Shown here: in pieces, positions 7,229 to 39,619 of the stretch
Position numbering within the stretch: position 1 is the first letter of the stretch
Layout: each line of letters opens with the position of its first letter
Assembly (NCBI GenBank): GCA_002869145.1
Contig: PKTM01000027.1
Span: forward strand, 134,243-198,242
Direction of reading: 5' to 3'
DNA length: 64,000 nt
Source of the DNA: Denitrovibrio sp.
GTDB lineage: Bacteria; Chrysiogenota; Deferribacteres; Deferribacterales; Geovibrionaceae
Made by a program: the position numbers and the translations under genes
The notes under the pieces: generated by a model
Told to the model about the DNA's origin: nothing
The model's database searches: none
The model's input: only the letters and a program-made list of their open reading frames with translations

Positions 7229-7236
7229 GATCAAAA

Positions 7237-7267
7237 GGGCTGCTCAAGAGAGCAGCCCTTTTTTTTC
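7237..7267 (+). terminator. rho-independent terminator after glnA
   Basis: GGGCTGCTC-aagag-AGCAGCCC stem-loop followed by a T8 run. Confidence 0.8.
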
Positions 7268-7286
7268 GATTAAAACCTTCGGTTCT

Positions 7287-7313
7287 TTCCGTGAGGCACA
7301 TCCTGTGCCTTGA
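7287..7313 (-). repeat. REP-like hairpin element (core AAGGCACA-N-GATGTGCCTCACG), reversed copy
   Basis: cgtgaggcacatcCtgtgcctt matches the reverse complement of the hairpin core inside both 113-bp tandem repeats at 32111-32336 in 21 of 22 positions. It forms a 7-bp stem AGGCACA/TGTGCCT. Confidence 0.6.
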
Positions 7314-7353
7314 AATCCGTTGCTTAAATTATTTTTATTTATTAAAGTGCATT

Positions 7354-7575
7354 ATGGAAAATAACCCTAAAGACCGTTTACACGGAATCACACTCGAAAC
7401 AGTATTGACTAAGCTCGAAGCTCACTACGGATGGGAAAGGCTTGGCGAAAAGATAAAAATTAAATGTTTTACTGATAATCCCAGTATAAAATCCAGCCTT
7501 AAATTTCTACGCAAAACTCCCTGGGCAAGAGCCAAGGTAGAAGATCTTTACCTCATTACTAGATTCCGAGGGTAA
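7354..7575 (+). CDS. small conserved hypothetical protein (DUF2132/VF530-like, assignment uncertain)
   Basis: [39 protein letters not shown]... The upstream in-frame ATG (7291) adds an implausible Cys-rich leader, so the true start is probably 7354. Confidence 0.5.
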
Positions 7576-7581
7576 AACAGC

Positions 7582-8400
7582 ATGAAAATAACCATCATAG
7601 CGGACAACTATGTTGATACTGCCTGTCTGGTTGCTGAGCACGGTTTCTCCTGTTTGATCGAAACAGTCAACAAGAAGATTCTGTTTGATACTGGTCAGGG
7701 GAGTGTGCTGATCAATAACATACGTGCTCTTAATATTTTTGAAGATATCGATATGATAGTTTTGTCACATGGACACTACGACCATACAGGCGGCTTATCA
7801 GCACATCTGGATGAGCTTTCAGGGTACTGTTATGATATTTTTGCCAGTGAGTTCATTTTTGACAAACATTTAAAAAAATCCGGCGACAGCTTTGACAACA
7901 TAGGTTTCAAATCAGACAGAAGTTCTGTCGAGCAGAAATTTAAACTTCACCTTAATTCAGACCTTAAACAGATTTCAGAAAATATATTTTTATCAGGCTC
8001 AATAATCCGTACAGAAAAGTTTAATGCAGATAGCCTGCTTTATGCGAAAGTTGATGGTGAATATGTTAAAGATATATTTCGAGACGAACAATATATGGTG
8101 GTAAAAGAGGAAGAAGGTATTCATGTTATCACCGGATGTACCCATTGCGGTGTGGTTAATCTTTTAAATGATGTAAAATCAAAATTTATTGGTTATAAAA
8201 TATTATCATTAACCGGCGGACTGCATATGTTCCGATCAGCCCATTCTCAGATTGAACATGTGGTCAGTTTTATTGAGTCTGAGCAGATAAAAGTGATTAA
8301 TACCGGTCACTGCACTGGGCTTGAGGCATCAATGCTGATGAAACAAAAGCTTGGTGATAGGGTTAACATTACAAAATCAGGAGCAGTCTACGAGCTCTGA
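7582..8400 (+). CDS. MBL-fold metallo-hydrolase
   Basis: HGHYDHTGG metal-binding motif. 272 aa. Confidence 0.7.
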   Translation: MKITIIADNYVDTACLVAEHGFSCLIETVNKKILFDTGQGSVLINNIRALNIFEDIDMIVLSHGHYDHTGGLSAHLDELSGYCYDIFASEFIFDKHLKKSGDSFDNIGFKSDRSSVEQKFKLHLNSDLKQISENIFLSGSIIRTEKFNADSLLYAKVDGEYVKDIFRDEQYMVVKEEEGIHVITGCTHCGVVNLLNDVKSKFIGYKILSLTGGLHMFRSAHSQIEHVVSFIESEQIKVINTGHCTGLEASMLMKQKLGDRVNITKSGAVYEL

Positions 8401-8708
8401 TCTTTTTTTACGCTGTCCTCGTACTTTTTCATAATCTCTTCGGTTTCACTGAGGGGTTCTCGCTTCTCAAGGTCGCTTCCGCCGCATGTATTGCATATGT
8501 TTTTTGTCATAACAAACCAGACCACAGAAACCAGCATAGCAGGAATGCCTATAACAGTGCCAAAGAATGGTACAATAGAGAAAAATATGGCTGATATTGC
8601 CAAAGCAATTGCCGCATAATAGTTCTTTTTCGCCACATCAACAGTTTTGTTACAGTCCTTACACCATCTTTCACTCATATATTCTTCTATCAAATATACC
8701 GCCAACAT
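8388..8708 (-). CDS. small membrane protein with CxxC...CxxC zinc ribbon and 2 TM helices
   Basis: CKDCNK ... CNTCGG pairs flank two hydrophobic helices. No family recognised. Confidence 0.45.
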   Translation of the reverse strand: MLAVYLIEEYMSERWCKDCNKTVDVAKKNYYAAIALAISAIFFSIVPFFGTVIGIPAMLVSVVWFVMTKNICNTCGGSDLEKREPLSETEEIMKKYEDSVKKDQSS

Positions 8709-8867
8709 ATCAAGTTATTAATTCCTCATATTATACAACTGTCTTTATAACACACTTAAACATATTACTTTTTTTCGTTCTGTATAATTTGCTCTACGAA
8801 GAGAAACAGCCTCCTGAAAGGTATAGGGGCAGACATGCGCTGCCCCTCTCTTCAAATTGAGGTAAAT

Positions 8868-9326
8868 ATGCAAGAAACAGTCAGACGTATAAAAATTTTT
8901 GAGGGATACAGTGGTAAGCCCTATAGATGCTCAGCAGGTAAATGGACTGTTGGTTATGGATACAATTTCGAAGAACGCAGTTTTTCAACAGATGTACTGG
9001 TTCAGATACTTAACGAAGGTTTTACACAGGAACTAGCTGAAAAACTGCTGATTTTAGATGTTAAAGAGATCATCAGAACTTTATACAGGGAATTCCCATT
9101 TTACAAAAAACTAGATGAAGCTAGGCGATTTGTTGTCACAGATATGGTTTACCAGCTAGGTCTTAGTGGCTTTGGTGAATTCAAGAAGACCCTAAGAGCA
9201 TTGGAATCGGAGAATTTCACACTTGCATCACAAGAGATGAAAGACAGTCTTTGGTACAGACAGTCAGGGCGCAGAAGCAGAATAAACAAAGACCAGATGT
9301 TAACAGGCATCTGGCAGGAGATATAA
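8868..9326 (+). CDS. GH24 (T4-type) lysozyme/muramidase homolog
   Basis: IKIFEGYSGKPYRCSAGKWTVGYGYN aligns to T4L [29 protein letters not shown], and the C-terminus WYRQSGRRSRINKDQMLTGIW aligns to T4L [21 protein letters not shown]. A GAGGT RBS sits 5 nt before the ATG at 8868. Confidence 0.7.
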   Translation: MQETVRRIKIFEGYSGKPYRCSAGKWTVGYGYNFEERSFSTDVLVQILNEGFTQELAEKLLILDVKEIIRTLYREFPFYKKLDEARRFVVTDMVYQLGLSGFGEFKKTLRALESENFTLASQEMKDSLWYRQSGRRSRINKDQMLTGIWQEI

Positions 9327-9702: not shown

Positions 9703-10377
9703 TTAGGAAATAATTTCTGAATCCTTAATCCATTTAGTAATCATTCGGTATGATCTATTTATATCCATAAACTTATCTCTGTCTCCGTCATGATCCGGGT
9801 GATATTTTTTACAGAGTTCTCTGAAGCGAATCTTAATTGTTTTGATATTCTCATGTCCGGAAAGACCAAGTGTTGCATATGCATCATTTAGGCTGTACTC
9901 AGAGCTCAGCACTTCCCAAGCTCCAGATAAAAGACTTTCGGCACTTGCGCTATCCAGCTTGTCATAGTTTCTTGTATCGAGATAAAAGTATTTCTGAGAA
10001 AGGGACTCAAGCTTGTCGTCACCTAGCTGTTCAGTGTGAAGTTCGCAGTGTGATTGACCATCTGCAATCTCCTGGCAGCAGAATGACATAGTGTTTTCGT
10101 TAAAAAATGCACATGAATCTTCTGGATAGTTAAAGACTCCTGTGCGCATGAAATGAACATGCAGGTATTTTCCCTCTTTGATATATTCATTTTGAAGCAT
10201 ATATAGCTTATGAAAAAGTGCGAAGTGTATTCTGTAAAGATCAACAGCCTCCATCCCCATAATCTCTGTGCCGGGGAAGGCGGCTCTGAGCACCTTGCTT
10301 TCATAAACTGTATCGTTTTCTATAAGCTTTTTCAGTGCATCAATATCTAGTTTTTCTAATAGGTTTTCTAGGCTCAT
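9703..10377 (-). CDS. DnaJ-related protein with C-terminal J-domain
   Basis: The C-terminus DAYATLGLSGHENIKTIKIRFRELCKKYHPDHDGD is a J-domain with the HPD motif. The N-terminal region resembles the 'DNA-J related' domain. Confidence 0.65.
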   Translation of the reverse strand: MSLENLLEKLDIDALKKLIENDTVYESKVLRAAFPGTEIMGMEAVDLYRIHFALFHKLYMLQNEYIKEGKYLHVHFMRTGVFNYPEDSCAFFNENTMSFCCQEIADGQSHCELHTEQLGDDKLESLSQKYFYLDTRNYDKLDSASAESLLSGAWEVLSSEYSLNDAYATLGLSGHENIKTIKIRFRELCKKYHPDHDGDRDKFMDINRSYRMITKWIKDSEIIS

Positions 10378-20893: not shown

Positions 20894-21310
20894 TTAATCG
20901 GCAGCGTTAATGTTTGCAATCATCCATTTGTAGATAGGAGATATTTGGCTGTACCCATGTTCTGACATAAGCTCTCTAAGTGCTTCCTGCCATAGGCTAA
21001 GCTGAATAGTCCAGTATTCTTGTTTAAACCCTCTGTATGTGTATACCTTAAAGACCCAAGCGACAGTTGCAGGGAGAACTTTTGTGTCAAATTCTTTGAT
21101 AAAAGCGTTAATAAATAGAGCGTGGTTTTTATGATTCTCAAGCATGGTGGCTTTATTGCCGGCGCCGATAATTTCTTTCAGGTTAGGAAGTGCCAGCATT
21201 TTAGTATTCACAAAATCAAGCGCAGCATTCATTACATCTTCATATTCTTTACTAGCTTTTTCATCAGGTTTTGAAAAATTTATTGGTGTGAATGTTATTT
21301 CTTCAGTCAT
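20894..21310 (-). CDS. hypothetical protein (possible partner of the adjacent B12-binding protein)
   Basis: 138-aa ORF, co-directional with the B12-binding gene and 24 bp downstream of it. No family recognised. Confidence 0.4.
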   Translation of the reverse strand: MTEEITFTPINFSKPDEKASKEYEDVMNAALDFVNTKMLALPNLKEIIGAGNKATMLENHKNHALFINAFIKEFDTKVLPATVAWVFKVYTYRGFKQEYWTIQLSLWQEALRELMSEHGYSQISPIYKWMIANINAAD

Positions 21311-21334
21311 TTAAACTCTCTCCAAAAGAATCGT

Positions 21335-22003
21335 TTAAGAGACACTGGCATACTCAGATAGCTGCTGCTTAAGTTCCATCAGTGAATAAACTACACTAAC
21401 ATTACTAAAGTCGTTGACAACTCCATACCCTCCCCAATGGAAAGCTTGTCCTCCAACGATAACAGGGGTTTCAGGATAGTTGCTGTTAATCTCTTCTAAG
21501 CATGTTCTTAAGTGTATGATATTGTAGTACATAGTAACAGATAAACATATTATGTCTGGGTTATTAATTTCGATAAAGTTCATTAGGTCATTAACAGGAA
21601 CGTTTGAGCCGAGGAAACTAGTATGCCATCCTAATATATCCATATAATCTGCTACCAACCTTGAACCTAGCTGATGTCTTTCTGAAGTGATGCCGCAAAT
21701 CACAGCTTTTTTTCCGTTTTTAGTTTTTTTTACAAAATGCGGATACAGGTAGCTGAGCAGGCTTTCAGTGATAGCGGTAGCCATATGTTCTACAGCGACA
21801 GAGATTTTGTTTTTCTGCCAAAGTTCGCCTATTTCATAAAGAGACATTTGGATAAAGTGCGTATAGATATCTATAATGTCATCGCCTGATTCTATGCGCT
21901 TAATGAGAATTTCGTAGCATTTTCCTCTGTTACCAGCCATTAAAAACGCTAAATAAGACTTGTAGTCATTCATCATATCGTTCTGCATAATAAATATTAT
22001 CAA
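21335..22003 (-). CDS. standalone cobalamin (AdoCbl)-binding domain protein, CarH/LitR/AerR-type, no DNA-binding domain
   Basis: IGELWQKNKISVAVEH is the W-x9-E-H motif. ITSERHQLGSRLV is the E/D-x-H-x-x-G lower-ligand motif. A Rossmann-like B12-binding segment follows. The start could be the internal Met at 21988. Confidence 0.6.
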   Translation of the reverse strand: MIIFIMQNDMMNDYKSYLAFLMAGNRGKCYEILIKRIESGDDIIDIYTHFIQMSLYEIGELWQKNKISVAVEHMATAITESLLSYLYPHFVKKTKNGKKAVICGITSERHQLGSRLVADYMDILGWHTSFLGSNVPVNDLMNFIEINNPDIICLSVTMYYNIIHLRTCLEEINSNYPETPVIVGGQAFHWGGYGVVNDFSNVSVVYSLMELKQQLSEYASVS

Positions 22004-22199
22004 ATGTGTACTTGTCAGTCAAGCTGCCAGTGTGGTTCAGTCGTTATATATAAACACGAAAAGAAATTTATGGAAATAAAGTGGAAAGCAACTTTTAGTT
22101 ACCTTAGTGGGTCTTGTGTAACCCAATGAAACATTCTCAAAACCTATAATATGTTATTCTTTTATTTAAGAGTGAAATATAATTAAGTATTATGTCCCC

Positions 22200-22559
22200 T
22201 TAATTTTGTGTAAGAGCATACTGATATATTGACTCATGGCTAATACGAATATCCTTATTCAGATTAAGCCACCCACTAATCTGCTCTGGACTCCAGTCTT
22301 CTTTCAGGTATTTTTCTACAAGTATCCATGTGGACGTTGGGATCCTTGGAGACACTTTGCCTTTTCTACGGCAAAGAGCTTTCCGGTGAGCCTGACGGGG
22401 CTGATATCCATTGCCACCTGTGTTCCTTTTAAGTTCCCTGCTTACAGTTGATTTATGAACTCGTAAGAGGTTTGCTATCTCAATCTGCGAATGTCCCATT
22501 TGTTTCAAAGCAGAAATCTGGTATCTTTGACTCTGAGTCAAGTGCGCATAGATTCTCAT
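22200..22559 (-). mobile_element. IS30-family transposase, N-terminal 119-aa remnant (DDE catalytic domain missing)
   Basis: HTH region ...SQIEIANLLRVHKSTVSRELKRN... and WSPEQISGWL are IS30-like. The ORF stops after about 120 aa and no catalytic domain follows. Confidence 0.75.
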
Positions 22560-22727
22560 TGGTGCTCCTTTTATGTGGTAATGGAAGCCGTGCCAATGCT
22601 AGCGCACTGGCTCGTCTATTACCAACTATAAAAGTTGCACTTAATTATTGAATTCGGGTATTAATTATAGAAATTGACTGACATATTGTGTAGACTATTT
22701 TCTGGTAGGCATCTAAAGAGGTGATTA

Positions 22728-23594
22728 GTGGGAGAAGAGTTTAAAAAATGGTGGTATTGGATACTGCTTGTTGCATCTGCATCAATAGTTCTGAGTAATA
22801 TAGAAAAACTAGATGGCTTTGAAAAACTTAATTCTATCGAGTTAATTTTTATAGTGTCTATTCTTTTGTTTCTATTACCGCTATTTTCAGAGTTTGAAAT
22901 TTTGGGAATAAAACTAAAAAAAGAACTTGAGAAAACAAAATCTGAGCTTTCAGGACAAATAGATCGAGCTTTTTTAACTTTAGAAAGTAAAATTTCTAAC
23001 ACTAACAATAATTATAATATAAATGGTTTTAACCTTCCAATAGAGGTTTTAATTGAATTATTTCAAAATCACTTTAAAAATGCTTCTGGCGTTGGCTCTT
23101 CTGAAGTAGTAACAACTTCTGCTAAAGAAGAAGAGGATAGTATCCATAATTCTATAACTCAAAGCACTGATAGCAGTATTGATGATATAAAAGGTATAAG
23201 TGAAAGGGCTGTTTATTTCTTTAAAGTACGGTATTCAATAGAAAATCTATTAACAAAAATATCAAGTGGTTTTTTGGTTAATAGAGTTTGGAATGTTTCA
23301 AAAATATTAGAAACTCTTGTGACTTTTAAGATAATTAGTGTGGAACAAGCGAGATTGATAAGAGAGATATTTTCTATTGTAAACAGAGGTATTCATGGCG
23401 AAACAGTTAGTGATGAATATTATAATTTTATTAGAGACAATTATCCTGACATTGAAAAATACCTTGCGGGTTTATCTGAGTCGGTACCTAGTAAGTTTAA
23501 AGACATTAATGCATGTTCAAGATGTAATAGTGTTGGACCTACAGTAAGGGAAGGCTACTGTATGAAATGTGGTTTTAATAATGATGACTGGTAG
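22728..23594 (+). CDS. hypothetical membrane-anchored protein with C-terminal zinc ribbon
   Basis: Two N-terminal TM helices, a coiled-coil, then CSRCNSVGPTVREGYCMKCG (C4 zinc ribbon). No family recognised. Confidence 0.5.
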   Translation: MGEEFKKWWYWILLVASASIVLSNIEKLDGFEKLNSIELIFIVSILLFLLPLFSEFEILGIKLKKELEKTKSELSGQIDRAFLTLESKISNTNNNYNINGFNLPIEVLIELFQNHFKNASGVGSSEVVTTSAKEEEDSIHNSITQSTDSSIDDIKGISERAVYFFKVRYSIENLLTKISSGFLVNRVWNVSKILETLVTFKIISVEQARLIREIFSIVNRGIHGETVSDEYYNFIRDNYPDIEKYLAGLSESVPSKFKDINACSRCNSVGPTVREGYCMKCGFNNDDW

Positions 23595-23595
23595 A

Positions 23596-24402
23596 CTATT
23601 CAGCAGGGTCGAAAGTGTCTTCAGGGTAATAATCTAGAATTTTATATAAGATAGGCTCTTGATCACTGAATTGTATTTCTAAATCCACTATATACGCAAG
23701 CTCATGCCAAGGTTTTTCAAATCTATCATCTCTGGAAGTTAACGATTTTTTTATTGTTTCATTTGCAAATATTATTTTTTTGGGCTTTTTGCTAATTGAT
23801 TCGACAATTGCTTTGTCTCCTGTGGTAGCTTTTAAATCGAATTTTGTTTGGTACCACTTTAACATTTGTTTATACATATAACCGTTTTCAGTATTGTCTT
23901 CTTGAATAGAAGGTGTTTTTGAGATAATTGAACTTGCGTCATCATGATTTATGTTGAAATTGTATGTAACATTAGCACCATTGTAAGCATTAAAGAATAG
24001 TTGCAGTGATTTATCTTGGGCTATTGGAGACACAATGTTCTTTATGTATTTTTCTTCTCTTTTATCAAAAAATTCAGGTATTTTTGAGCATGTTTTAATA
24101 AAATCAATTGTGGTTTTTAAAGTAGTTGCCCAATTAACTAAAATACCATGTTCATATACAATATGTAATAAGGGAAGAGCATATGCAACTAAATCGAGTT
24201 CCACAGAGCCAGCTCTAACTTCTTTAATGAATAGTTGACTGTTTATATTAACTTGCTTCAATTCTTTTGAAACATGGTATTGGAAGCTATTGGAAATGTC
24301 TCTAATTGAATTTGCAAATGAAATGATCTCAATTGGTTTCGAAGTTTTATATACGATTTCAATTTTATTATTGTAGTCAATTTCATATTCAATTTTATTC
24401 AT
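23596..24402 (-). CDS. hypothetical protein (268 aa)
   Basis: Convergent with the previous gene, stop codons 1 bp apart. Cytoplasmic, no recognisable motif. Confidence 0.45.
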   Translation of the reverse strand: MNKIEYEIDYNNKIEIVYKTSKPIEIISFANSIRDISNSFQYHVSKELKQVNINSQLFIKEVRAGSVELDLVAYALPLLHIVYEHGILVNWATTLKTTIDFIKTCSKIPEFFDKREEKYIKNIVSPIAQDKSLQLFFNAYNGANVTYNFNINHDDASSIISKTPSIQEDNTENGYMYKQMLKWYQTKFDLKATTGDKAIVESISKKPKKIIFANETIKKSLTSRDDRFEKPWHELAYIVDLEIQFSDQEPILYKILDYYPEDTFDPAE

Positions 24403-24565
24403 TTTGAATCCTTGTGAAGATTTTATTATTTATGTGAATGATAACTTGAGTTTAGATTCATATCAACAAAATCTACAAAGTAGAATTACAACAAAACTAC
24501 AACAATTAATATGCTTGAATTCGTATGGTCTTTCGAGTGCGGTTCTAAGTTGCTGATAATAAAAG

Positions 24566-24650
24566 TGCCGAAGGCGGGAATCGAACCCGCACGCCGTTAT
24601 CCAGCAACGGATTTTGAGTCCGTCGTGTCTACCAATTCCACCACTTCGGC
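24566..24650 (-). tRNA. tRNA-Leu (anticodon CAA)
   Basis: Minus-strand sequence GCCGAAGTGGTGGAATTGGTAGACACGACGGACTCAAAATCCGTTGCTGGATAACGGCGTGCGGGTTCGATTCCCGCCTTCGGCA. Anticodon loop CTCAAAA, long variable arm (class II), T-loop GGTTCGATTCC. Confidence 0.85.
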
Positions 24651-24813
24651 CAAGTGATTCAAAAGAAATGTAATATTAAGCAAACATCAGTGTGTTGTCA
24701 ATATAAACAAAAGATGATAATTATATATAATATTCACCTGTTAAAAGTTGTCTTATTGTCTTTTTAGTTGTTCTTTGATACTATGATATTCAGCAAAAAA
24801 CATATGGATATAA

Positions 24814-26964
24814 ATGAGAAATTTATTTGTAGTATTATTATTCATTTTAGTGCTCATTCCTTCCGCTTTTGCCGCTCATATGCAGGTGAAAGTGGGCGTA
24901 TACCAGAATTATCCACTAATGTTTCAGGCAAAAAACGGCGAACCCGACGGATTCGGATATGATATACTCACCCAGTTAGCCGAAAGGGAAGGGTGGGATC
25001 TTGAGTTTGTGTATGGTTCTTGGTCAGAAATATTCAACATGGTTCAGGAAGGCCGGGTTGACATAGTCTTTCCTGTGGCTTTCACTTTAGAGCGTACAAA
25101 TATTATCCAATATAATTCCGAAAATGTCGTCAGCAACTGGGGGCAGATATACCTTAGCAAAGGTGCCACAGCTAATTCAATCCTCGATTTAGATGGCATG
25201 ACTGTTGCAGTCTTAAAAGACGATGTTTACAATACAAGCAAATATGGCATGCAGTATCTTGCATCAGCTTTTAATATCTCGGTTGATTTTTATGTTTTAG
25301 ACTCTTACGCACAGGTTTTGGATTCTCTTCAAAATGGAAGTGCCGACGCGGGGCTGGTAAACAGGTTTTACGGCGAAGCAAACGCTTCCAAATACAATAT
25401 CGAAAAAAGTACAATACTCATACACCCTGTAGAGGTACGTTTTGCGATGCCGCTTACTGATGATGAAAAGAACATAAAGCTAATAGAAGCAATTGACCCA
25501 TACATCAAAGCCATGCGACATCAGGAAGACTCTGAATATTTGAAATCTTACAATAAATGGTTTGGGTCTGGCACAACTCAGAATTTACACAAGACTATAA
25601 AATATACCGCAGCGATACTTATTATCCCTTCACTTCTGGCAATTATTATCTTCTTTTTTATGCGTTCAGAGATCAGAAGAAAAACTAAAGAGCTTCGTGG
25701 CAAAAACACAGAACTTCAGAAAGAGATAGAAGAAAGACGAAAAATTCAGGAAGAACTTCGTGAAAATCAGGAAAAATACAGCAACCTTTTCAATACCTCC
25801 TATAACCCAATAGCAATTATCTCCGAAGATGGAAGCATAGTCGATGTGAACGGTGAGATGATAGGGCAGTTTGGATATGAGCGTGATGAGCTTCTTAATA
25901 TGTTTCTTGAAATGCTGGTGGCGGAAGACAGCATTTACCATGTTCAGGATATTTTGAATAAGATGAGTAAGACCAAAAAATGGTCATTTGAGCTGGATTT
26001 CTTAAAGTCATGGGGGGACACTTTCAACGCAGAGATATCCGCCAGCCGACTTGAAATATCCGGTAAAACCTTTATTCAGCTTGTTATTATGGATGTAACA
26101 TCCCGAAAGAAAGCGAGTGAACTGCTGAACCGCAGACAAGAATATCTGGAGAAGAAGGTTGAACAGGAAGTGCACCGCAGAAGACAAAACGAAAGACTCA
26201 TGATGCAGCAGTCAAAAATGGCCGCCATGGGTCAGATGATGAGTGCAATAGCCCACCAGTGGCGACAGCCTTTGAACACCATCGCAATCTACATTCAGGA
26301 CTTTGAAGATTCATTCAAGCACAACGAACTGGATGAGAAATACCTGCAAGAACTCGTGGGACTCTCTATGCATCAGATAAATTTTATGTCAAAAACCATA
26401 GATGACTTTAAAAACTTCTTTAAACCAGATAAAGACGAGATAGTTTTCGAGGTCTGCCGTGAGACACTCAACGCAATTTCACTTTTGGGAGTACAGCTTG
26501 TTAGAAACAATATAAAGCTAGAGATGAACTGTCATGGAGAAGTTATACCTTTTGGCGACAGTGATGTTTTGAAATGCAGCAATGAAGGATGTACTTTTAT
26601 TAAAGGCTTCCCTAACGAATACAAACAGGTGCTGCTGAACCTTGTGCAAAACGCTAGAGACGCTATAGAAGATGACATAGACGCAATAGGTGATACTGGT
26701 AAGATTGTGGTTGGTGTGGAAGAGGATGCAAACACCGTTCGTATATATGTTAAAGACAATGGCCCCGGCATACCAGATGATGTTGCCGAGCGTATTTTTG
26801 AGCCTTATTTCACAACAAAAGCAGAAGGACGAGGTACAGGTGTGGGGCTTTACATGTCAAAGATTATCATAGAACAAAACATGAAAGGCAGACTATACTT
26901 TGAAAAGCTTAACCCTGGAACAAAATTTATAATAGAGATGAACAAGTATTCAGAGCCTACCTAA
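24814..26964 (+). CDS. sensor histidine kinase with N-terminal periplasmic solute-binding (PBPb-like) domain, TM, PAS, HisKA, HATPase
   Basis: Signal peptide, a PBP type-2 domain and a TM helix, then a PAS region, an H-box (SAIAHQWRQPLN), and N/G1/G2 boxes (DNGPGIP, GTGVGL). Confidence 0.75.
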   Translation: MRNLFVVLLFILVLIPSAFAAHMQVKVGVYQNYPLMFQAKNGEPDGFGYDILTQLAEREGWDLEFVYGSWSEIFNMVQEGRVDIVFPVAFTLERTNIIQYNSENVVSNWGQIYLSKGATANSILDLDGMTVAVLKDDVYNTSKYGMQYLASAFNISVDFYVLDSYAQVLDSLQNGSADAGLVNRFYGEANASKYNIEKSTILIHPVEVRFAMPLTDDEKNIKLIEAIDPYIKAMRHQEDSEYLKSYNKWFGSGTTQNLHKTIKYTAAILIIPSLLAIIIFFFMRSEIRRKTKELRGKNTELQKEIEERRKIQEELRENQEKYSNLFNTSYNPIAIISEDGSIVDVNGEMIGQFGYERDELLNMFLEMLVAEDSIYHVQDILNKMSKTKKWSFELDFLKSWGDTFNAEISASRLEISGKTFIQLVIMDVTSRKKASELLNRRQEYLEKKVEQEVHRRRQNERLMMQQSKMAAMGQMMSAIAHQWRQPLNTIAIYIQDFEDSFKHNELDEKYLQELVGLSMHQINFMSKTIDDFKNFFKPDKDEIVFEVCRETLNAISLLGVQLVRNNIKLEMNCHGEVIPFGDSDVLKCSNEGCTFIKGFPNEYKQVLLNLVQNARDAIEDDIDAIGDTGKIVVGVEEDANTVRIYVKDNGPGIPDDVAERIFEPYFTTKAEGRGTGVGLYMSKIIIEQNMKGRLYFEKLNPGTKFIIEMNKYSEPT

Positions 26965-33933: not shown

Positions 33934-34734
33934 TTATACTTTTTTAAGCATCTCTTTAACCCCGTCTATATTAAATGGGAATACTATAGTATTTGTTCTG
34001 TCAGATGCTATCTGATTAAGCGTTTGCAGATATCTAAGCTGTATTGTGACAGGGCTCTGAGCCATTATAACAGATGCTTCGTGGAGTTTGTGTGAAGCCT
34101 GAAGTTCGCCTTCTGCGGCTATAACTTTCGCTCTTCTTTCCCTCTCTGCATCAGCTTGTTTTGCCATGGCCTTCTGCATTTCCTGTGGAAGGTCGATGTG
34201 TTTAATCTCTACAGCGCTTATTTTAACGCCCCAAGGATCTGTTTGTGAGTCTATAACGCCCTGAAGCCTTTGGTTTATCGTTTCTCTCTCGCTCAGCAGA
34301 TCGTCCAGTTCAAACTGTCCCAGAATGCTCCTGAGAGTTGTTTGTGATAGCTGACTTGTGGCATATATATAGTCGTCCACCTCAAGCACGGTTTTTTCCG
34401 GTTCAATTGCACGGAAATAAAGAACAGCGTTCACCTTGACAGAAACGTTATCTTTTGTGATTACATCCTGCGGCGGAACATCCATTACAATAGTTCTGAG
34501 GTTTACCTTCACCATCTTTTCTATCAATGGTATGAGGATGATAAGGCCAGGTCCTCTTACACTGACATAACGCCCAAGCCTAAAAACTACTCCACGCTCG
34601 TACTCTTTCAGGATTTTTATTGTATTAACAATAAGTATGAGAACTAGTGGTATCAGCACAAATGTCGGATGAAACATATTGACCTCCAACGGCATATTCG
34701 TTATTATTTTAAACCCAAAAAGGCTTATCAGCAA
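33934..34734 (-). CDS. SPFH/band-7 (stomatin-like) family protein
   Basis: N-terminal TM helix and an SPFH domain, with an Ala/Glu-rich coiled C-terminus ([22 protein letters not shown]). Confidence 0.75.
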
Positions 34735-34806
34735 TTTATATTAATTTGTTGCCTTTGTAACAAAAAAGAAATAGTTTTAGTAAAAAATTTAAAATGGATG
34801 GTAAAT

Positions 34807-35676
34807 ATGCCCGCCAAAAGCATGACCGGTTACGGGAAACTGATAACCGGAAACGATCTCTGCGACATCAAAGTAGAGATGAAAGCTGTAAACAGCAGAT
34901 ACTTCGATTGTAATGTTAGAATGCCAAGACTTTTCAACTTCATCGAGATAAACATTAAAAATACCGCAAAAGATATACTTGCCAGAGGTAAGGTCGATAT
35001 TAATATCGATGTGAAGCTCAAAAAACAGCAGTTCAAACCTGTTCTCAGGGAAGATGCAGTATCCAGCTATTTAAGTGTTTTTGAGCAGATCAAAGATAAT
35101 TTTAAGATTGAGGGTAATGTCAGACTTGAACATTTACTCAATTTTAACGATATTCTAGAATCCGAAGAGACTGACGACATGGGAGAACAACTTGGCGAGT
35201 TTGTTGTAAACGCAGTAAAAGAGTGTGCGCTTAGCCTTGACGGTATGCGGGCAAAAGAGGGTGCAAACCTTCAGGCTGACATCACAGACAGACTTAGCAT
35301 ACTTACAGAGATAGCAGCAGAGATAGACAGCAACAGAGAGGGCGTTCTGGAACACTGGAAAGAGCGTTTTGCTAAGCGTATCAGCGAATTCGGTGTAGAT
35401 GACGAAGAACGAATTGTTCAAGAAGCAGCAATAATGGCTGAAAAAGCTGATATTCAGGAAGAGGTCACACGGATTGATTCACACGTGGAGCAGTTTCTGA
35501 AGATAATGAATAATGAAGAGAACTCCGGGAAGAAACTTGACTTCATGTGTCAGGAGCTGAACCGTGAGTTTAACACTATAGGCTCTAAAAGCGGAAAGAC
35601 TGCTATTATAAATAATGTGGTTCAGGCTAAAAGCGAGATTGAAAAAATACGCGAACAGGTGCAGAATCTGGTATGA
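34807..35676 (+). CDS. yicC: YicC-family stress-induced protein
   Basis: MPAKSMTGYG N-terminus and ELNREFNTIGSKS C-terminal motif. The track ORF extends upstream, but MPAK is the likely start. Confidence 0.8.
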   Translation: MPAKSMTGYGKLITGNDLCDIKVEMKAVNSRYFDCNVRMPRLFNFIEINIKNTAKDILARGKVDINIDVKLKKQQFKPVLREDAVSSYLSVFEQIKDNFKIEGNVRLEHLLNFNDILESEETDDMGEQLGEFVVNAVKECALSLDGMRAKEGANLQADITDRLSILTEIAAEIDSNREGVLEHWKERFAKRISEFGVDDEERIVQEAAIMAEKADIQEEVTRIDSHVEQFLKIMNNEENSGKKLDFMCQELNREFNTIGSKSGKTAIINNVVQAKSEIEKIREQVQNLV

Positions 35677-36284
35677 GGTTTACTAAAGGCAAGCTATTTG
35701 TCGTCAGCGCACCCAGCGGTGCCGGAAAAACAACTCTTTGTTCGAGGCTTCTTGGCAGGTTTGAAACCATAGGTTACTCAATATCTTATACAACAAGAAC
35801 ACCACGACACGATGAAACAGATACAGAAGACTACTATTTTGTTTCAGAAGAAGAATTTAAGAGTATGCTGGAAAACGATGAGCTTCTTGAATGGGCATGT
35901 GTGCACGGCAACTATTATGGAACATCAAAAAAACGTGTTGAAGAGATACTTGAAACCGGCCGTGATGTGCTGCTTGACATAGACCCTAAAGGCGCCCGCC
36001 AGCTAAGAGAAAAGCTAGACTACGGAATATATATTTTCATCACTGCTCCGTCTATGGAAGATCTTCGTAAAAGACTTATAAATAGAAGAACAGAAAGCGA
36101 AGAGATAATGAATGTAAGGCTTACTAACGCCAGAGAAGAAATAATGCACTACGGCGAGTATGATTATGTTATAGTGAACAGAGAGATTAACAAGGCCACT
36201 AACGAGCTTGAGTCGATATATATCGCTGAGCATCTGAGGTCTGACAATATAAAATCGTTAGAAGACATTATGGAGGTAGATTAA
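35673..36284 (+). CDS. gmk: guanylate kinase
   Basis: P-loop GAGKTTL. YTTRTPR and GMP-binding motifs. Confidence 0.9.
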   Translation: MRFTKGKLFVVSAPSGAGKTTLCSRLLGRFETIGYSISYTTRTPRHDETDTEDYYFVSEEEFKSMLENDELLEWACVHGNYYGTSKKRVEEILETGRDVLLDIDPKGARQLREKLDYGIYIFITAPSMEDLRKRLINRRTESEEIMNVRLTNAREEIMHYGEYDYVIVNREINKATNELESIYIAEHLRSDNIKSLEDIMEVD

Positions 36285-36539
36285 GTGCCGTTACTTGATA
36301 TTGAACATGTAATCAAACAAGACAATGTAAAAAGCCGTTTCAAGCTGGTTCACATCGCAGGACTCAGAGCCCGCGAACTGAACGCTCCCAAAGAAGACTC
36401 TATGAGAAGGCAGAACGAAGAATACACAAAAGTTACAACAACTGCTCTCAGTGAGATTATCGAAGGTCAGATTGCTTTTGAAAGAACAATGACCGCAGAA
36501 GAGATAGCCGAAGAAGCTGCTGATGAGGCAAATGAGTAA
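36285..36539 (+). CDS. rpoZ: DNA-directed RNA polymerase subunit omega
   Basis: GTG start. RFKLVHIAGLRARELN matches the RpoZ core. Conserved yicC-gmk-rpoZ order. Confidence 0.8.
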   Translation: MPLLDIEHVIKQDNVKSRFKLVHIAGLRARELNAPKEDSMRRQNEEYTKVTTTALSEIIEGQIAFERTMTAEEIAEEAADEANE

Positions 36540-37713
36540 TTACCTGATAGGTGTCTCAGGCGGTATAGCCTGTTACAAGACACTTACCCTTTGCAGACTG
36601 CTTATGAAAGCAGGTCATGATGTTCGTGTTGTCATGACAGAAAACGCTTGTAAATTTGTAACCCCTCTTGCCTTTGAAACTATCACTAGAAACAGGGCAT
36701 ATGTTGGGGAATTTGATGCCGGGCTCGACCCTGCTACAATAGAGCATATAGATCTTGCGGGCTGGGCAGACGAATTTGTCATAGCCCCAGCCACCGCAAA
36801 CACTATAGCGAAAATAGCACACGGCATAGCGGATAATCTGCTCACCTCCACCATACTCCCTTATAAAAAAAGGCTTCTTATAGCTCCCGCTATGAATGTT
36901 GATATGTATGCAAACCCTATAACTCAGGAAAACCTGAAAAAGGTCGAAGCAATGGGGCATATGATAATAGACCCGGGTACGGGTGAGATGGCCTGTGACG
37001 CAGAAGGCAAAGGAAGAATGGCTGAACCTGAGGATATCTTTCAGATATTAACTGCTGAGATGCCTCTTAAAGGAGTTAAGGTACTTGTGACCGCTGGTCC
37101 TACAGCAGAACCTATAGACCCTGTGCGTTACATAACAAACCGCTCCAGTGGAAAGATGGGGGCTGCCATAGCCAGAAAGGCATCAGAGATGGGTGCCGAA
37201 GTTAAGCTTATTGCAGGACCTGTAAGCATAAACCTTAACGGGCTTAATGTAACTTCCGTTACTACTGCAGAAGAAATGCTGAATGCTGTGAGAGAGAATC
37301 TCGCAGATACCGACATGTTAATAATGGCTGCCGCTGTAGCAGACTATAAGCCTGCTCAATACTCTGAAAAGAAGATTAAAAAGAACAACGAAGAGATGAA
37401 CGTTCCTCTTACTAGAAATCCTGATATTCTAAAGACAATCTCTGCTGAAAAACTTGAAAAGCAGGTCTTTGTTGGATTTGCTGCTGAGAGTAATGATGTT
37501 AAAGAGAACGCATTAGCCAAACTTCAATCAAAGAAACTCGATCTAATAGTAGCAAATGATATCTCCAGAGGGGACATAGGTTTTGAATCCGACGAGAACG
37601 AAGTCTCTTTATATTTTGCAGATGGAACAAATCTCGAATCCGGTAAAATGCATAAATCAGAAGTAGCAAAGCTTATTATCAACAGAGCATTTGATATTTT
37701 CAGAGGGAAATAA
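36523..37713 (+). CDS. coaBC: bifunctional phosphopantothenoylcysteine decarboxylase / phosphopantothenate-cysteine ligase
   Basis: N-terminal flavoprotein domain (GVSGGIACYK) and a C-terminal CoaB domain. 396 aa. Confidence 0.9.
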   Translation: MRQMSNYLIGVSGGIACYKTLTLCRLLMKAGHDVRVVMTENACKFVTPLAFETITRNRAYVGEFDAGLDPATIEHIDLAGWADEFVIAPATANTIAKIAHGIADNLLTSTILPYKKRLLIAPAMNVDMYANPITQENLKKVEAMGHMIIDPGTGEMACDAEGKGRMAEPEDIFQILTAEMPLKGVKVLVTAGPTAEPIDPVRYITNRSSGKMGAAIARKASEMGAEVKLIAGPVSINLNGLNVTSVTTAEEMLNAVRENLADTDMLIMAAAVADYKPAQYSEKKIKKNNEEMNVPLTRNPDILKTISAEKLEKQVFVGFAAESNDVKENALAKLQSKKLDLIVANDISRGDIGFESDENEVSLYFADGTNLESGKMHKSEVAKLIINRAFDIFRGK

Positions 37714-38345
37714 TGGATCTGTTTAATAAGAACAGCATAAAAGAAGTTTACGGTATAGAAGATGTCTTAGCTGAAAGATGCGAGCCTGATGGCGGCGACC
37801 CTTTTGAGGCACTCAGAGACGAGACTATAAAGTGTAAAAAATGCCGTTTACATCAAACCAGAAACAATGTCGTTTTCGGCGTTGGGAATCCAGCCGCTGA
37901 TCTTATGTTTGTAGGAGAAGGCCCCGGAGCAGAAGAGGACAAGCAGGGAGTACCTTTTGTAGGCCGTGCAGGAAACCTCCTTACAAAGATGATAGAAGCT
38001 ATGGGTTACAGCAGAGAGACTGTTTACATAGCAAACATAGTAAAGTGCAGACCCCCTGAAAACAGAAACCCTTTCGAAGACGAATCAAACACCTGCATTC
38101 CATACCTATATAGACAGATAGAATATATTAAGCCGAAAGTTATTGTATGCCTCGGAAGTGTGGCATCACAGAATCTTTTGAAGACTACTCTTGGTATTTC
38201 GAAAATCCGCGGTGAATTTGTCGATTTAAACGGCGTCAAAGTGATGCCGACTTTTCATCCTGCATATCTTCTGCGTAATGCAAAAATGAAAAAACCTTGC
38301 TGGGAAGACCTTCAAAAAGTGATGTGTGAAATTTCCCCTGATTAA
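37713..38345 (+). CDS. uracil-DNA glycosylase, family 4
   Basis: [24 protein letters not shown] and the FVGRAGNLL motif. Cys ligands for a 4Fe-4S cluster. Confidence 0.85.
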
Positions 38346-38416
38346 CAATTAATCAGTTTGTATTTTTTTAGATTTTATGGTTAAATTCATTTATTAAAAT
38401 ACATGGAGGTTGCGAG

Positions 38417-39619
38417 ATGAGGAAATTCTCCCTTTTCGGACTATTATTAGTATTATCTATTTCAATTTCTGCCTGCGTTGGCGCTCCAAAGGTAGACCCT
38501 ATGGCGTTCCAGATAACCCCTGCAGACGTGGAAAAGATCATTATCCCAGGAACTTGTCAGGCTTCTTACAAATCAGAAACACCACGCATTGCTGTTACTG
38601 CTTTCCTGAACAACACTACATATGGAAAGATGACGGCTCAAAACACTAAAACATCCGGTGAAAGTACTACAACTAAAAAGTCAGCTGCTGTTGCTGGTAT
38701 AGTTGCATCTCCGATCGGAATTGGTGTAGGTGGAGCAAGTGTATCAAAAACAGATACGAAATATTCTCAGAATGTAGACACTTTCCTTAGAGAAATTGCT
38801 CCTAATATTGGCGAATATGCTCAGTCAGCAGTTGAAAACACAATGGCTAATGTCGGTGGAGCAGACATATACGACCGCAACAACCTCCAGCAGATTATGT
38901 CTGAGCAGAAATTCCAGATGACTATTGGCGACCCTACTACTGCTGTAGAGCTTGGTAAAATGGCCGGAGTTTCTTACATTATTACTGGGACAGTTGACAA
39001 CATCACCACCAAGTATAAAGAAAAAATGAAAAACGATAGTGGTGCCACAGGCTGGCTTGCAGTTGCTGCAAGTGCTGCTACAGCTGCTGCTAACACTCAT
39101 GCAGGCTGGAATGTTGACGTAGAGGTTACTGTTAAACTTCTTGATGTTGCTACTGGCAAAATGCTCGTGAACAAAAAAGTTAAAGGTCATGAAGTTGCAG
39201 GAATGCAGAAAGACTTCAACCAAGAGATGGCTATAACCGCTGCAAAAAAAGCAATGGGAGAGGCTGTTGATGATCTGAGACCTATTTTTTCTGAAAGATT
39301 TGCTCAGAAAGGCTACATCCTTCAGCTTAAAGGTAACAAAAAAGTTGCCCTTATCAACCTAGGTACAGAGAAAGGTCTGAAATCAGGTCAGGTTATTGAA
39401 GCCTACGATTTCATGGAGATTATCGACCCTCTTACAAATGTTGCTACGTGTAACATGTCTAAGATCCCTGTTGTACTTAAAGTTTCTAACCAAATCCAGC
39501 CAAAACAGGCATGGTTAGAGGTTGACGGTAAACCAGAACTTGCTTCCAGACTTAAGCTTGGTGTTATTGTTAAGCCTGCCAAACAAAAAGGTCAGAGTTT
39601 AATGAAAAAGCTTTTTTAA
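38417..39619 (+). CDS. CsgG/HfaB-family outer-membrane lipoprotein with ~130-aa C-terminal beta-rich extension
   Basis: Lipobox LSISISAC. Alignable to E. coli CsgG segment by segment: IAVTAF~IFVSVYN, IYDRNNLQQIMSEQKF~LERQGLQNLLNERKI, AGVSYIITGTVDN~TAANIMVEGSIIG, NVDVEVTVKLLDVATGKML~QIAVNLRVVNVSTGEIL. An amphipathic Ala/Gly segment sits where the CsgG TM hairpin lies. Confidence 0.6.
   Translation: MRKFSLFGLLLVLSISISACVGAPKVDPMAFQITPADVEKIIIPGTCQASYKSETPRIAVTAFLNNTTYGKMTAQNTKTSGESTTTKKSAAVAGIVASPIGIGVGGASVSKTDTKYSQNVDTFLREIAPNIGEYAQSAVENTMANVGGADIYDRNNLQQIMSEQKFQMTIGDPTTAVELGKMAGVSYIITGTVDNITTKYKEKMKNDSGATGWLAVAASAATAAANTHAGWNVDVEVTVKLLDVATGKMLVNKKVKGHEVAGMQKDFNQEMAITAAKKAMGEAVDDLRPIFSERFAQKGYILQLKGNKKVALINLGTEKGLKSGQVIEAYDFMEIIDPLTNVATCNMSKIPVVLKVSNQIQPKQAWLEVDGKPELASRLKLGVIVKPAKQKGQSLMKKLF

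Follow-up and report, generated by a model that had tools for sequence, protein, structure and literature searches.

In Denitrovibrio sp., the segment on the 3' side of tRNA-Leu(CAA), positions 22146-24564 of the window (the whole 64,000-nucleotide stretch of contig PKTM01000027.1 analysed here), is probably the worn remainder of a small integrative element whose entry point was the 3' end of this tRNA gene. It would carry two genes, referred to here as A and B, as independent cargo, and gene A would encode a membrane HEPN-like protein. As a case of mobile-element decay beside a tRNA, the islet itself is textbook and brings nothing new. The comparison with sister genomes shows tRNA-Leu(CAA) to be a hotspot of integration and rearrangement in Deferribacterales. 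The family of protein A, in which a membrane anchor is joined to a HEPN-like domain, is large, has no Pfam or PADLOC model, and occupies cargo slots of prophages and integrative and conjugative elements (ICEs) across phyla.

Layout and composition of the islet

The features of the islet and its borders are given in Table 1. The source contig belongs to a metagenome-assembled genome, and a local mis-assembly is formally conceivable. ARAGORN and Rfam agree on the tRNA-Leu(CAA) gene, whose 3' end, from the strand of the ARAGORN prediction, points into the segment of about 2.4 kb as described in the initial annotation. The two genes of the segment are convergent, again as first described, with the single base 23595 between their stop codons. 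No terminator or hairpin was found at this junction (z=-0.01), the sole match of the terminator scan falling within the tRNA gene, and an Rfam scan of the whole window returned nothing besides the tRNA. The spacer preceding ORF A holds a sigma-70-like site, TTGACT-16-TATTTT at 22674-22701 (a consensus match only), in addition to the ribosome-binding site of ORF A. At the other border, three-frame translation and tblastn of 22004-22145 gave no recognisable coding remnant, and a 41-aa ORF at 22004-22129 is without support.

Table 1. Features of the tRNA-Leu(CAA) islet and its borders (window coordinates).
Feature	Position	Strand	Evidence
tRNA-Leu(CAA) gene	24565-24650	-	ARAGORN; Rfam RF00005, 63.3 bits
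tRNA-proximal arm, non-coding, includes ORF B promoter region	24475-24564	.	global alignment with BM704 element
ORF B, 268 aa	23596-24402	-	phrog_9226 match
ORF A, 288 aa	22728-23594	+	GTG start, AGAGGTGA ribosome-binding site
AT-rich spacer, IS30 end to ORF A	22659-22727	+	promoter scan and sequence
IS30-family remnant	22146-22658	-	Pfam, NCBIfam, PHROG, tblastn, inverted-repeat comparison
Probable deletion junction and upstream region of B12-binding-domain gene, AT-rich	22004-22145	.	three-frame translation, tblastn
B12-binding-domain gene	21335-22003	-	

The local composition, for which a comparison with the flanks had been proposed, singles out A and B as the most extreme GC and GC3 outliers among the 62 ORFs of the window. 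ORF A has a GC of 0.300 (z -3.1) and a GC3 of 0.194 (z -4.25), and ORF B a GC of 0.296 (z -3.2) and a GC3 of 0.238 (z -3.2), versus ORF means of 0.40 for GC and 0.37 (+/- 0.04) for GC3 in the window.

The tRNA-Leu(CAA) site in related genomes

The gene order tRNA-Leu/histidine kinase/DUF gene is kept in eight Deferribacterales loci. A and B are absent beside tRNA-Leu in all seven related Deferribacterales genomes that keep this order, in agreement with the initial view of the segment as an acquired one. In no relative do the genes of the left flank (B12-binding, 138-aa, HD-GYP and APRT) lie less than 10 kb from tRNA-Leu. The 3' flank of tRNA-Leu is a rearrangement breakpoint order-wide, with different genes there in every lineage.

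The closest relative, Denitrovibrio sp. BM704 (PKTN01000001.1, locus L015), carries at tRNA-Leu(CAA) a 6.4-kb element with integrase, Rep and GGDEF genes. On both sides of this element the 3' half of the tRNA is repeated perfectly over 58 bp, and the tRNA gene is demonstrably an att site in BM704. The 90 nt closest to the tRNA in the window resemble the proximal end of the BM704 element, with a global alignment score of 16 versus -6.8 +/- 4.7 for shuffled sequences, none of 2000 shuffles reaching 16. This similarity is short, AT-rich and of about 60% identity, and its significance is limited to the first 90 nt aligned globally, local alignment of the full 162-nt spacer between the tRNA and ORF B with the BM704 arm being not significant. 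The 90 nt showed no similarity to the distal flank of the BM704 element or to the six other relatives. They contain a tandem TGTTGTA-n5-TGTTGTAAT (24485-24504, read on the minus strand) whose distance to the tRNA end is 60 nt, versus 62 nt in BM704. From the alignment, we consider the arm to be homologous to the tRNA-proximal end of the BM704 integrative element, and its tandem TGTTGTA motif could be an integrase arm-site.

A direct repeat of the tRNA 3' end, which the initial annotation proposed to look for, is absent: no att repeat was detected in the whole window with 22-mers (up to 3 mismatches), exact 11-mers or blastn-short of the tRNA +/-30 nt, and the repeats within 21300-25000 are chance-level AT-rich ones only. 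No integrase or recombinase gene is present between 19.4 and 24.6 kb, and no homologs of the BM704 element's integrases were found in the window. The interpretation as a decayed integrative element is nonetheless supported, by the tRNA att site in the relative, the similar 90 nt, and an IS30 remnant located where the integrase or att repeat would be. What stands of the initial proposal is that a tRNA integration site with an IS scar harbours strain-specific DNA of foreign origin, as indicated by the seven relatives, the composition, the BM704 att site and the arm; the att repeat and the integrase that would complete it are missing.

According to the scenario that we favour, a small integrative element would have entered the chromosome at the tRNA-Leu(CAA) 3' end, and an IS30 copy would have inserted at the inner border of its cargo. 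The parts remaining today would be the tRNA-proximal arm, a 1.9-kb AT-rich cargo block with A and B acquired independently, and the 5' third of IS30. The distal att repeat and the integrase, along with a replication gene if the element had one, would have been lost, most probably together with the IS30 DDE domain in one IS-adjacent deletion, which would have joined the scar to the sequence preceding the B12-binding-domain gene. This integration route is reconstructed and not observed, since the window has no integrase, att repeat or second IS end.

One could also imagine that the segment was not acquired horizontally as an islet and instead belongs to the lineage as an ancient variable region, AT-rich and evolving fast. 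The order-wide breakpoint at the tRNA 3' flank, with different genes per lineage, would fit such an origin, as would the fact that none of the mobility genes is intact. However, the GC3 of 0.19-0.24 versus 0.37 +/- 0.04, the occurrence of the sole relatives of A and B on phages, ICEs and islands of unrelated phyla, the IS scar, and the att-bracketed element at the same tRNA in BM704 all argue for acquisition and make this explanation very improbable.

The IS30 remnant

The 119-aa ORF at 22200-22559 (minus strand) corresponds to the N-terminal part of an IS30 transposase (Pfam HTH_38, 6.4e-13; NCBIfam transpos_IS30, 5.5e-17, model positions 1-81 of 267), also matched in PHROG. It had been described as a transposase cut to its N-terminal 119 aa without the DDE domain, and indeed the Pfam and NCBIfam matches cover the HTH end only. 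No match to the DDE (rve) domain was obtained, IS30 homology ending at about aa 139 / nt 22146. The stretch of about 200 bp of AT-rich non-coding DNA that was thought to take the place of this domain is shorter than proposed: similarity continues past the in-frame stop to about 22146, residues 1-139 of longer IS30 proteins aligning to 22559-22146 with tblastn, and about 140 bp are left up to the start of the next gene at 22003. The remnant is thus made up of the left inverted repeat, the 5' UTR, the 119-codon HTH ORF to an in-frame stop, and about 20 further decayed codons. The left inverted repeat is retained at about 22629-22658, and the distance from its motif GATTCAAyNNNNtAAGTGCAACT to the ATG is equal in the remnant and in three independent IS30 copies (L203-L205). 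Neither a right inverted repeat nor a second IS30 copy was found in the window. This IS30 copy is dead. A 49-nt block shared between the window (22604-22651) and the BM704 locus (6791-6839) was considered as element backbone and rejected, as unrelated IS30 copies identify it as the IS30 left inverted repeat; the flanks beyond this repeat are not significantly similar between the two loci.

The left inverted repeat abuts the cargo, 70 nt before the start of ORF A, and in BM704 an IS30 inverted-repeat scrap lies directly upstream of the GGDEF cargo gene in the same orientation. With a window devoid of att repeat and integrase, this could mean that the cargo was brought or exchanged by IS30 activity, through one-ended or composite transposition or IS-mediated recombination, and not by a tRNA-targeting integrase, the proximity of the tRNA being incidental. 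We consider this quite unlikely. There is only a single IS end, the transposase gene points away from the cargo, and the 90-nt tRNA-proximal arm matches an integrase element bracketed by att sites. Moreover, the sequence past the inverted repeat is not shared with BM704, so the inverted repeats may be independent insertions of related IS. Entry by integration at the tRNA, with IS30 as a later insertion, remains our preferred explanation.

A and B are unrelated genes

The initial annotation paired the membrane zinc-ribbon protein with its soluble neighbour. The co-occurrence of the two families was evaluated at 123 other loci, i.e. 96 for A and 27 for B, with tblastn and profile HMM searches over +/-5-8 kb. 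A B-family gene was found at none of the 96 A-family loci, and an A-family gene at none of the 27 B-family loci. Clustering of the +/-3 neighbours at the same loci revealed no conserved partner for either gene, the largest neighbour cluster covering 10 of the 96 A loci and 4 of the 27 B loci. The pairing therefore finds no support: A and B are two unrelated genes, not a system.

A two-gene defence or toxin module, in which a membrane zinc-ribbon effector and a soluble sensor or partner would be co-regulated via convergent overlapping transcripts, could have been suspected from the adjacency of the genes, with 1 bp between stops and no terminator hairpin, from their shared unusual GC of about 0.30, and from the residence of both families on mobile elements. 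The co-occurrence test (0/96 and 0/27) largely refutes such a module. It is also at odds with the lack of a conserved partner for either gene, with the convergent orientation, which is not that of an operon, and with the different sources of the genes, A having its closest relatives in Firmicute elements and B in Burkholderiales prophages. We give it hardly any credence.

Protein B

The product of ORF B is soluble, in accordance with its first description as a 268-aa soluble protein, and gives a full-length match to phrog_9226 (E=4.5e-32, residues 2-257 against positions 2-253 of the 261-position profile). An N-terminal alpha/beta domain is followed by a C-terminal part (aa 175-258, nt 23629-23880) that is predicted to form an OB-like five-stranded barrel, and a C-terminal motif, EDTFDP, is conserved. 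The predicted barrel superposes on the OB folds of SSB, RPA and PriB, which suggests that protein B may bind single-stranded nucleic acid. A profile search of the PDB gave chance matches only, and the BFVD search retrieved only uncharacterised phage proteins and one DUF6575 protein. Homologs of B are found in the early region of a lambdoid prophage, in an integrase/primase islet where they neighbour a pP_pnuc nuclease, adjoining the BrnT toxin in Bordetella phage PHB09, beside an integrase (L092), and within a tail module. There was one weak match for B among GenBank phages, and three weak ones among plasmids. Protein B is a stand-alone phage accessory ("moron") protein.

Architecture of protein A

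The two N-terminal hydrophobic helices, coiled coil and C-terminal C4 zinc ribbon noted initially for ORF A are all recovered. The first helix (aa 8-23) is weak and the second (aa 37-55) strong, with a long helix continuing from it. A conserved juxtamembrane motif, PLFSE-E--GIKLKKE, precedes the coiled coil and is the best-conserved part of the family, P51 being invariant and E55, G60 and K64 reaching at least 90% in 117 sequences. A disordered linker (aa 93-153) leads to a HEPN-like four-helix domain (aa 159-256, nt 23202-23495) with an invariant E172 and the motif N219-R-G-I-H223-G-E. The C4 zinc ribbon (aa 263-281, nt 23514-23570) follows, with its CxxC pairs at aa 263 and 278. The family comprises at least 1,185 cluster representatives (50%-identity clusters) and is uncharacterised.

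Protein A has the four-helix up-and-down bundle of about 100-120 aa expected of HEPN domains. Glu172 and His223 are invariant in an alignment of 30 sequences, and Glu172, His223 and Gly224 are conserved at 90% or more across 117 representatives. The invariant Glu lies in the first helix, and His223 where helix 3 gives way to the loop leading to helix 4; these positions coincide with the location of the HEPN active site reported by Anantharaman et al. in 2013 (PMC3710099). The conserved R220 stands two residues before His223 (Rx2H), versus the canonical Rx4-6H, with Asn219 at the -4 position. DUF4145 is the only fold-type Pfam family recurring among A-family members, with matches for 13 of 30 at E<=1 (best 5.4e-4) and for 14 of 117 at E<=0.01 (best 6.3e-5), all below the Pfam curated threshold; the protein of the window has no DUF4145 match in Pfam. 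Profile searches of the PDB with protein A or its HEPN-like domain returned no HEPN protein, the matches being to a zinc ribbon (L37e) or by chance. NCBIfam gave noise only for A and B, and neither had a match in PADLOC-DB v2 at E<=1, in keeping with the initial remark that no known defence family is recognisable. On these sequence features, protein A is a putative membrane-anchored, RNase-like protein with a predicted DUF4145-like HEPN fold.

Genomic contexts and possible role of protein A

Members of the A family are located in prophages and conjugative elements. Homologs sit in the interval that separates tail genes from the holin/endolysin cassette, immediately precede serine recombinases or C5 methylases in some loci, and also occur within a Firmicute ICE and beside DpnII-MboI/RT and T5orf172/HD-CE-HATPase genes. 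Searches with A gave no match among GenBank phages and one weak match among plasmids. Gene A is carried by prophages and conjugative elements as stand-alone cargo, and is a reasonable candidate for a single-gene anti-phage defence.

The mode of action that seems most likely to us, with a confidence that falls a little below even, is that of a single-protein exclusion or abortive-infection factor acting by HEPN RNA cleavage, or by a Csx28-like membrane perturbation. An N-in/C-in helical hairpin would anchor the protein in the membrane, and the coiled coil would join this hairpin to a cytoplasmic DUF4145-like HEPN domain capped by the zinc ribbon. A membrane or envelope event at phage or plasmid entry or exit could alter the oligomeric state of the coiled coil and juxtapose the HEPN domains, whose conserved His223/Glu172/Arg220 site would then cleave RNA. 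Alternatively, assembly could perturb the membrane, as with Csx28. The abortive-infection-type effector suggested at first is partly supported as a putative role, but protein A has no PADLOC match and shows a non-canonical Arg-His spacing. A bolder proposal, which we regard as rather doubtful, is that the family represents a previously unnamed, self-contained immunity protein that would couple a membrane or envelope signal to HEPN RNA cleavage or depolarisation through the non-canonical N-R-G-I-H-G-E site. Such signals may be DNA injection, holin action or T4SS contact.

The gene neighbourhoods could also be read without any defence function. In about 17 of the 96 loci (18%), A is directly upstream of the lysis genes, holin and amidase/endolysin, and in seven loci it directly precedes an NlpC/P60 hydrolase in an ICE transfer operon, co-directional with these downstream genes. 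Together with the non-canonical Arg spacing and the fact that conservation peaks in the TM-proximal motif, this could mean that A is an envelope-associated accessory of mobile elements that, for example, regulates or assists lysis or the breaching of the cell wall during conjugation, and whose HEPN-like bundle is non-catalytic. However, most A loci have no adjoining lysis or hydrolase gene; recombinase, methylase, DpnII/RT and T5orf172/HD-CE genes are among the other neighbours, and nothing related is present in the window. The slot between tail and lysis genes is moreover the classic moron slot, and the strong conservation of His223/Gly224 and Glu172 argues for a functional site. We judge this accessory role unlikely, and keep the exclusion or abortive-infection factor as the preferred mode for A.

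Comparison with known systems

The islet resembles the BM704 element in its tRNA, 3' side and orientation, in the proximal arm of 90 nt, in the cargo slot beside the tRNA, and in the IS30 left-inverted-repeat remnant that borders the cargo in both. It differs by the lack of an integrase, a Rep gene and the 58-bp distal att copy, and by its cargo, A and B instead of a GGDEF protein. The IS remnant has the N-terminal HTH_38/HTH_32 region of the IS30 family and a left inverted repeat whose GATTCAA...AAGTGCAAC motif is spaced from the ATG as is typical of the family; unlike complete members, it lacks both the DDE domain and the right inverted repeat, and its ORF stops prematurely. Protein B is similar to phrog_9226 over its own full length, and its predicted barrel to the OB folds of the ssDNA-binding proteins SSB, RPA and PriB.

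Protein A shares with DUF4145-like HEPN proteins (PF13643; PMC3710099) the predicted four-helix fold, the fusion to TM and zinc ribbon, for which DUF4145 is listed there with "Zinc Ribbon, TM", and the residence on mobile elements and beside R-M genes. It is distinguished from them by the Rx2H motif N-R-G-I-H-G-E in place of Rx4-6H, and by family members that are all under the Pfam threshold. The order of TM hairpin, coiled coil, HEPN and zinc ribbon is none of the three membrane HEPN groups described in PMC3710099, namely the WP-type with a single TM then HEPN, the helical domain, TM and Abi2/Swt1 HEPN, and the HEPN, 2 TM and zinc ribbon.

For a TM-HEPN protein that acts on the membrane instead of as an RNase, Csx28 provides a precedent, and it carries a divergent HEPN-like domain. 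This small membrane protein, an accessory of type VI-B2 CRISPR, is described as an antiviral effector that forms an oligomeric pore and causes membrane depolarisation (bioRxiv 10.1101/2021.11.02.466367). HepS of prophage Gifsy-1 is a single-gene HEPN abortive-infection protein, soluble and tetrameric, that senses the tail-tip protein J and cleaves tRNA anticodon loops (PMC13043305); protein A differs in its membrane anchor and zinc ribbon, and has no sequence similarity to HepS. The "Ishtar" anti-plasmid proteins have DUF4145 domains (2026 preprint, 10.64898/2026.07.06.735840). Single-protein HEPN defences have been shown only recently, with HepS and "Ishtar" both dating from 2026, and a membrane-tethered HEPN defence such as that proposed for A would add a different sensing mode.

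Gene content and foreign origin of the tRNA-Leu(CAA) flank

The window originates from a metagenome-assembled genome of Denitrovibrio sp., and the products of the two genes next to the tRNA, ORF A and ORF B, are deposited as hypothetical proteins C0602_12435 and C0602_12440 (198-kb contig). The features reported in the initial annotation, i.e. the tRNA, the convergent A and B genes and the N-terminal part of an IS30 transposase, were all found in the window (see the table). tRNA-Leu(CAA) is the sole tRNA that ARAGORN and Rfam detect in these 64 kb. A single base (23595) separates the stop codons of A and B, and a terminator-like hairpin is absent from their junction (fold z=-0.01), so antisense overlap of the two transcripts is expected when both promoters are active. 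A 138-aa ORF located nearby has a host-like GC content; it was unmatched in Pfam, PHROG, NCBIfam and PADLOC, and no homolog was found near tRNA-Leu in relatives.

Positions of features in the window and in the sister-genome locus L015 (Denitrovibrio sp. BM704, PKTN01000001.1)
Feature	Position	Strand	Remarks
Window
tRNA-Leu(CAA)	24565-24650	minus	ARAGORN and Rfam
ORF B	23596-24402	minus	268 aa, 3' side of tRNA
ORF A	22728-23594	plus	288 aa, 3' side of tRNA
IS30 transposase, N-terminal HTH part	22200-22559	minus	119-codon ORF, beyond ORF A
B12-binding-domain protein gene	21335-22003		next gene past IS30 scar
138-aa ORF	20894-21310	minus	between HD-GYP and B12-binding-domain protein genes
L015
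P4-type integrase	1934-3172	minus	directly outside distal repeat
58-bp repeat, distal copy	3281-3338
Tyrosine integrase	3493-4575		inside element
327-aa ORF			inside element, listed between integrase and Rep
Rep (REP_ORF2-G2P) protein	5842-6558		inside element
IS30 left-repeat scrap	6775-6845		inside element
GGDEF protein	6948-9302		inside element
58-bp repeat, tRNA 3' part	9714-9771

When the 62 non-overlapping window ORFs are compared, A (GC 0.300, GC3 0.194) and B (GC 0.296, GC3 0.238) deviate most in composition, with z from -3.1 to -4.25; the GC of the IS30 fragment, 0.417, is host-like. Relatives were scanned, one genome per species, with the histidine kinase adjoining the tRNA as query. 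The tRNA-Leu(CAA)/kinase/DUF order is kept in eight Deferribacterales loci, and A, B and IS30 are each missing from all seven that have sequence on the tRNA 3' side. The genes on this side vary between lineages; those of Seleniivibrio-like genomes are the inverted counterpart of window 33.9-41.8 kb. Given these lineage-specific genes and the inverted block, the tRNA-Leu 3' flank is a hotspot for rearrangement and insertion. In both the window and L015, the inverted genes (window 33940-41837, against 1-7000 of the Seleniivibrio-like loci L011, L012 and L016) are found 9-17 kb from the tRNA, on its kinase side. Their position on opposite sides of the tRNA points to an inversion that has the tRNA-Leu 3' flank as one of its breakpoints.

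A related element in the sister genome

The proposal that the segment is a decayed integrative element at a tRNA is supported, and L015, whose kinase is 75% identical to that of the window, provides a concrete relative. There, the 3' part of the tRNA has a perfect 58-bp copy, and the two repeats flank a 6.4-kb element. The second, P4-type integrase just beyond the distal repeat suggests tandem accretion of islands at tRNA-Leu(CAA) (L015 1-9803), the newer one having displaced the older. The first 90 nt past the tRNA in the window (24475-24564), here called the arm, align with the tRNA-proximal end of the L015 element with a score of 16, versus -6.8 +/- 4.7 in shuffles and reached by 0 of 2000 of these; no alignment was found with the distal flank of that element or with the flanks of six other relatives. 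Both arms contain TGTTGTA-n5-TGTTGTAAT at 60-62 nt from the tRNA end, which we infer to be possibly integrase arm sites. An integrase, a Rep homolog and an att repeat are all absent from the window.

Similarity to longer IS30 proteins extends from the ATG at 22559 to about 22146, across an in-frame stop (22200-22202), with no further IS30-like sequence past this point. The scar lacks the DDE domain (about 600 bp) and lies only about 140 bp from the start of the B12-binding-domain gene. At the other end, a 23-nt string (22629-22651) belonging to the left inverted repeat of IS30 has an exact match in L015, and GATTCAAyNNNNtAAGTGCAACT is found in three unrelated metagenome IS30 copies about 95 nt upstream of the transposase ATG, the same distance as in the window. 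On the basis of the alignment limit and this motif, the scar spans about 22146-22658, its left repeat intact and its right part deleted. A second IS30 copy was not found in the window. The left-end remnants of L015 and the window (22583-22658), 84% identical over 49 nt, have the same orientation directly upstream of the tRNA-proximal cargo, and the cargoes differ; this could reflect shared ancestry of the scar or an IS30 target preference. In the closest relatives of the fragment (66% identity; L203 1400-2359, L204 107-1066) the transposase is divided between an HTH and an rve ORF, and may be frameshifted or subject to programmed frameshifting. Many database homologs are also short (81-207 aa).

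In the simplest history, an element related to that of L015 would have integrated at tRNA-Leu, and an IS30 copy would then have inserted at the inner border of the cargo. The subsequent, inferred deletion would have begun in the IS and taken the catalytic domain of the transposase, the element backbone and the distal att with it. As a case of a known kind, the islet is ordinary.

A and B are independent cargo genes

The initial annotation had considered A a plausible membrane zinc-ribbon effector, with B as its soluble partner. This pairing is rejected: with tblastn and profile HMMs, the B family was found in none of 96 other A loci (6 from assemblies, 10 viral contigs, 80 metagenome contigs) and the A family in none of 27 other B loci (3 assemblies, 23 viral contigs, one GenBank phage). 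Clustering of three genes on each side revealed no conserved neighbour, the largest clusters covering 10/96 A loci and 4/27 B loci. The relatives also come from different sources: the closest for A (30-38% identity) are mostly in elements of Firmicutes and in metagenomes from gut or fermenters, those for B (33-39%) in Burkholderiales prophages and islands.

Protein B is matched along its entire length by phrog_9226 (E=4.5e-32), a family of unknown function; Pfam, NCBIfam and PADLOC gave no match. In the predicted model (pLDDT 83) the C-terminal part has an OB topology (three strands, helix, two strands); no structural relatives were found for the N-terminal alpha/beta part. Nucleic acid binding would be our guess for a candidate role from this fold. 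The conserved acidic C-terminus, EDTFDP, resembles SSB tails, a speculative likeness. B-family genes occur on the opposite strand beside the RecT/exonuclease module of a lambdoid prophage, at the early-right operon end of Bordetella phage PHB09 beside a BrnT toxin, between tail chaperone and tape-measure genes (L095), between integrase and tail-fibre genes (L092), and in an integrase/primase islet adjoining a pP_pnuc nuclease. Such variable phage positions are typical of morons. In Polynucleobacter sp. AP-Reno-20A-A9 (L005 8001-9667), a B-family gene is followed after 5 bp by a pP_pnuc_1/pP_pnuc_2 gene, a predicted pPIWI-associated nuclease, within a small integrase and PriCT/AAA_25 primase islet; in this single instance the two look like a cargo unit.

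Protein A, a probable membrane-anchored HEPN-type protein

Two alignments, one with 30 homologs and one with 117 cluster representatives, gave the layout of protein A. A weak (aa 8-23) and a strong (aa 37-55) hydrophobic helix, flanked by Lys-rich segments, precede a highly conserved juxtamembrane motif (PLFSE-E--GIKLKKE), a long helix, a disordered linker and a confidently predicted four-helix domain (aa 159-256, pLDDT >90); the C4 zinc ribbon is optional in the family. Listed for protein A are TTHA0636 (9.4), YutE (9.1), HepN toxin SO_3166 (9.1), an AMPylated HEPN toxin (9.0), AF0298 (8.8), HEPN toxin 7ae2 (8.6) and HI0074 (8.4), with MtlR, Csm6, HepS, sacsin HEPN, AbiA and Cas13bt3 lower. 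DUF4145 (Pfam, HEPN clan) is the only recurrent fold-type family among the members (13/30 and 14/117, all below threshold), and the window protein itself has no DUF4145 match in Pfam. The HEPN active-site motif lies where helix 3 ends and the loop to helix 4 begins, and a conserved acidic residue precedes it (Anantharaman et al., PMC3710099). Protein A has an invariant Glu172, and its conserved N219-R-G-I-H223-G-E falls exactly where helix 205-222 ends; the Arg-His spacing is Rx2H, versus Rx4-6H in HEPN. We interpret protein A as a stand-alone HEPN-type protein anchored in the membrane.

This is a large family: in a library clustered at 50%, it counts 1,185 representatives at E<=1e-3 and 608 at <=1e-10. 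Its members occupy cargo slots: separating tail genes from the holin/endolysin cassette (about 17 loci), immediately upstream of a serine recombinase (7), in ICEs with a VirB4-like ATPase on one side and an NlpC/P60 hydrolase on the other (7), adjoining a C5 methylase (5), beside DpnII-MboI and a reverse transcriptase, and at a prophage end between T5orf172 and an HD-CE/HATPase protein. In three independent contigs (L002, a Lutisporaceae MAG, and metagenome contigs L003 and L004), the same unknown ORF of 233 aa and an RVT_1 reverse transcriptase come after the A-family gene, with a DpnII-MboI gene alongside, a defence-island-like neighbourhood. PADLOC has no model for protein A. Since the gene often stands in front of cell-wall-breaching genes, a role as lysis or transfer accessory is a less probable rival; exclusion or abortive infection is the most likely candidate role. 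The A family, an unnamed membrane-HEPN candidate defence gene, is the sole item here that might repay work. For Firmicutes, fusions of DUF4145 to 'Zinc Ribbon, TM' are already on record, as are three membrane HEPN groups, none of which has the domain order of protein A (Anantharaman et al., PMC3710099). Precedents for protein A are HepS, a single-gene HEPN defence (PMC13043305), and Csx28, a small membrane-pore antiviral effector (10.1101/2021.11.02.466367).
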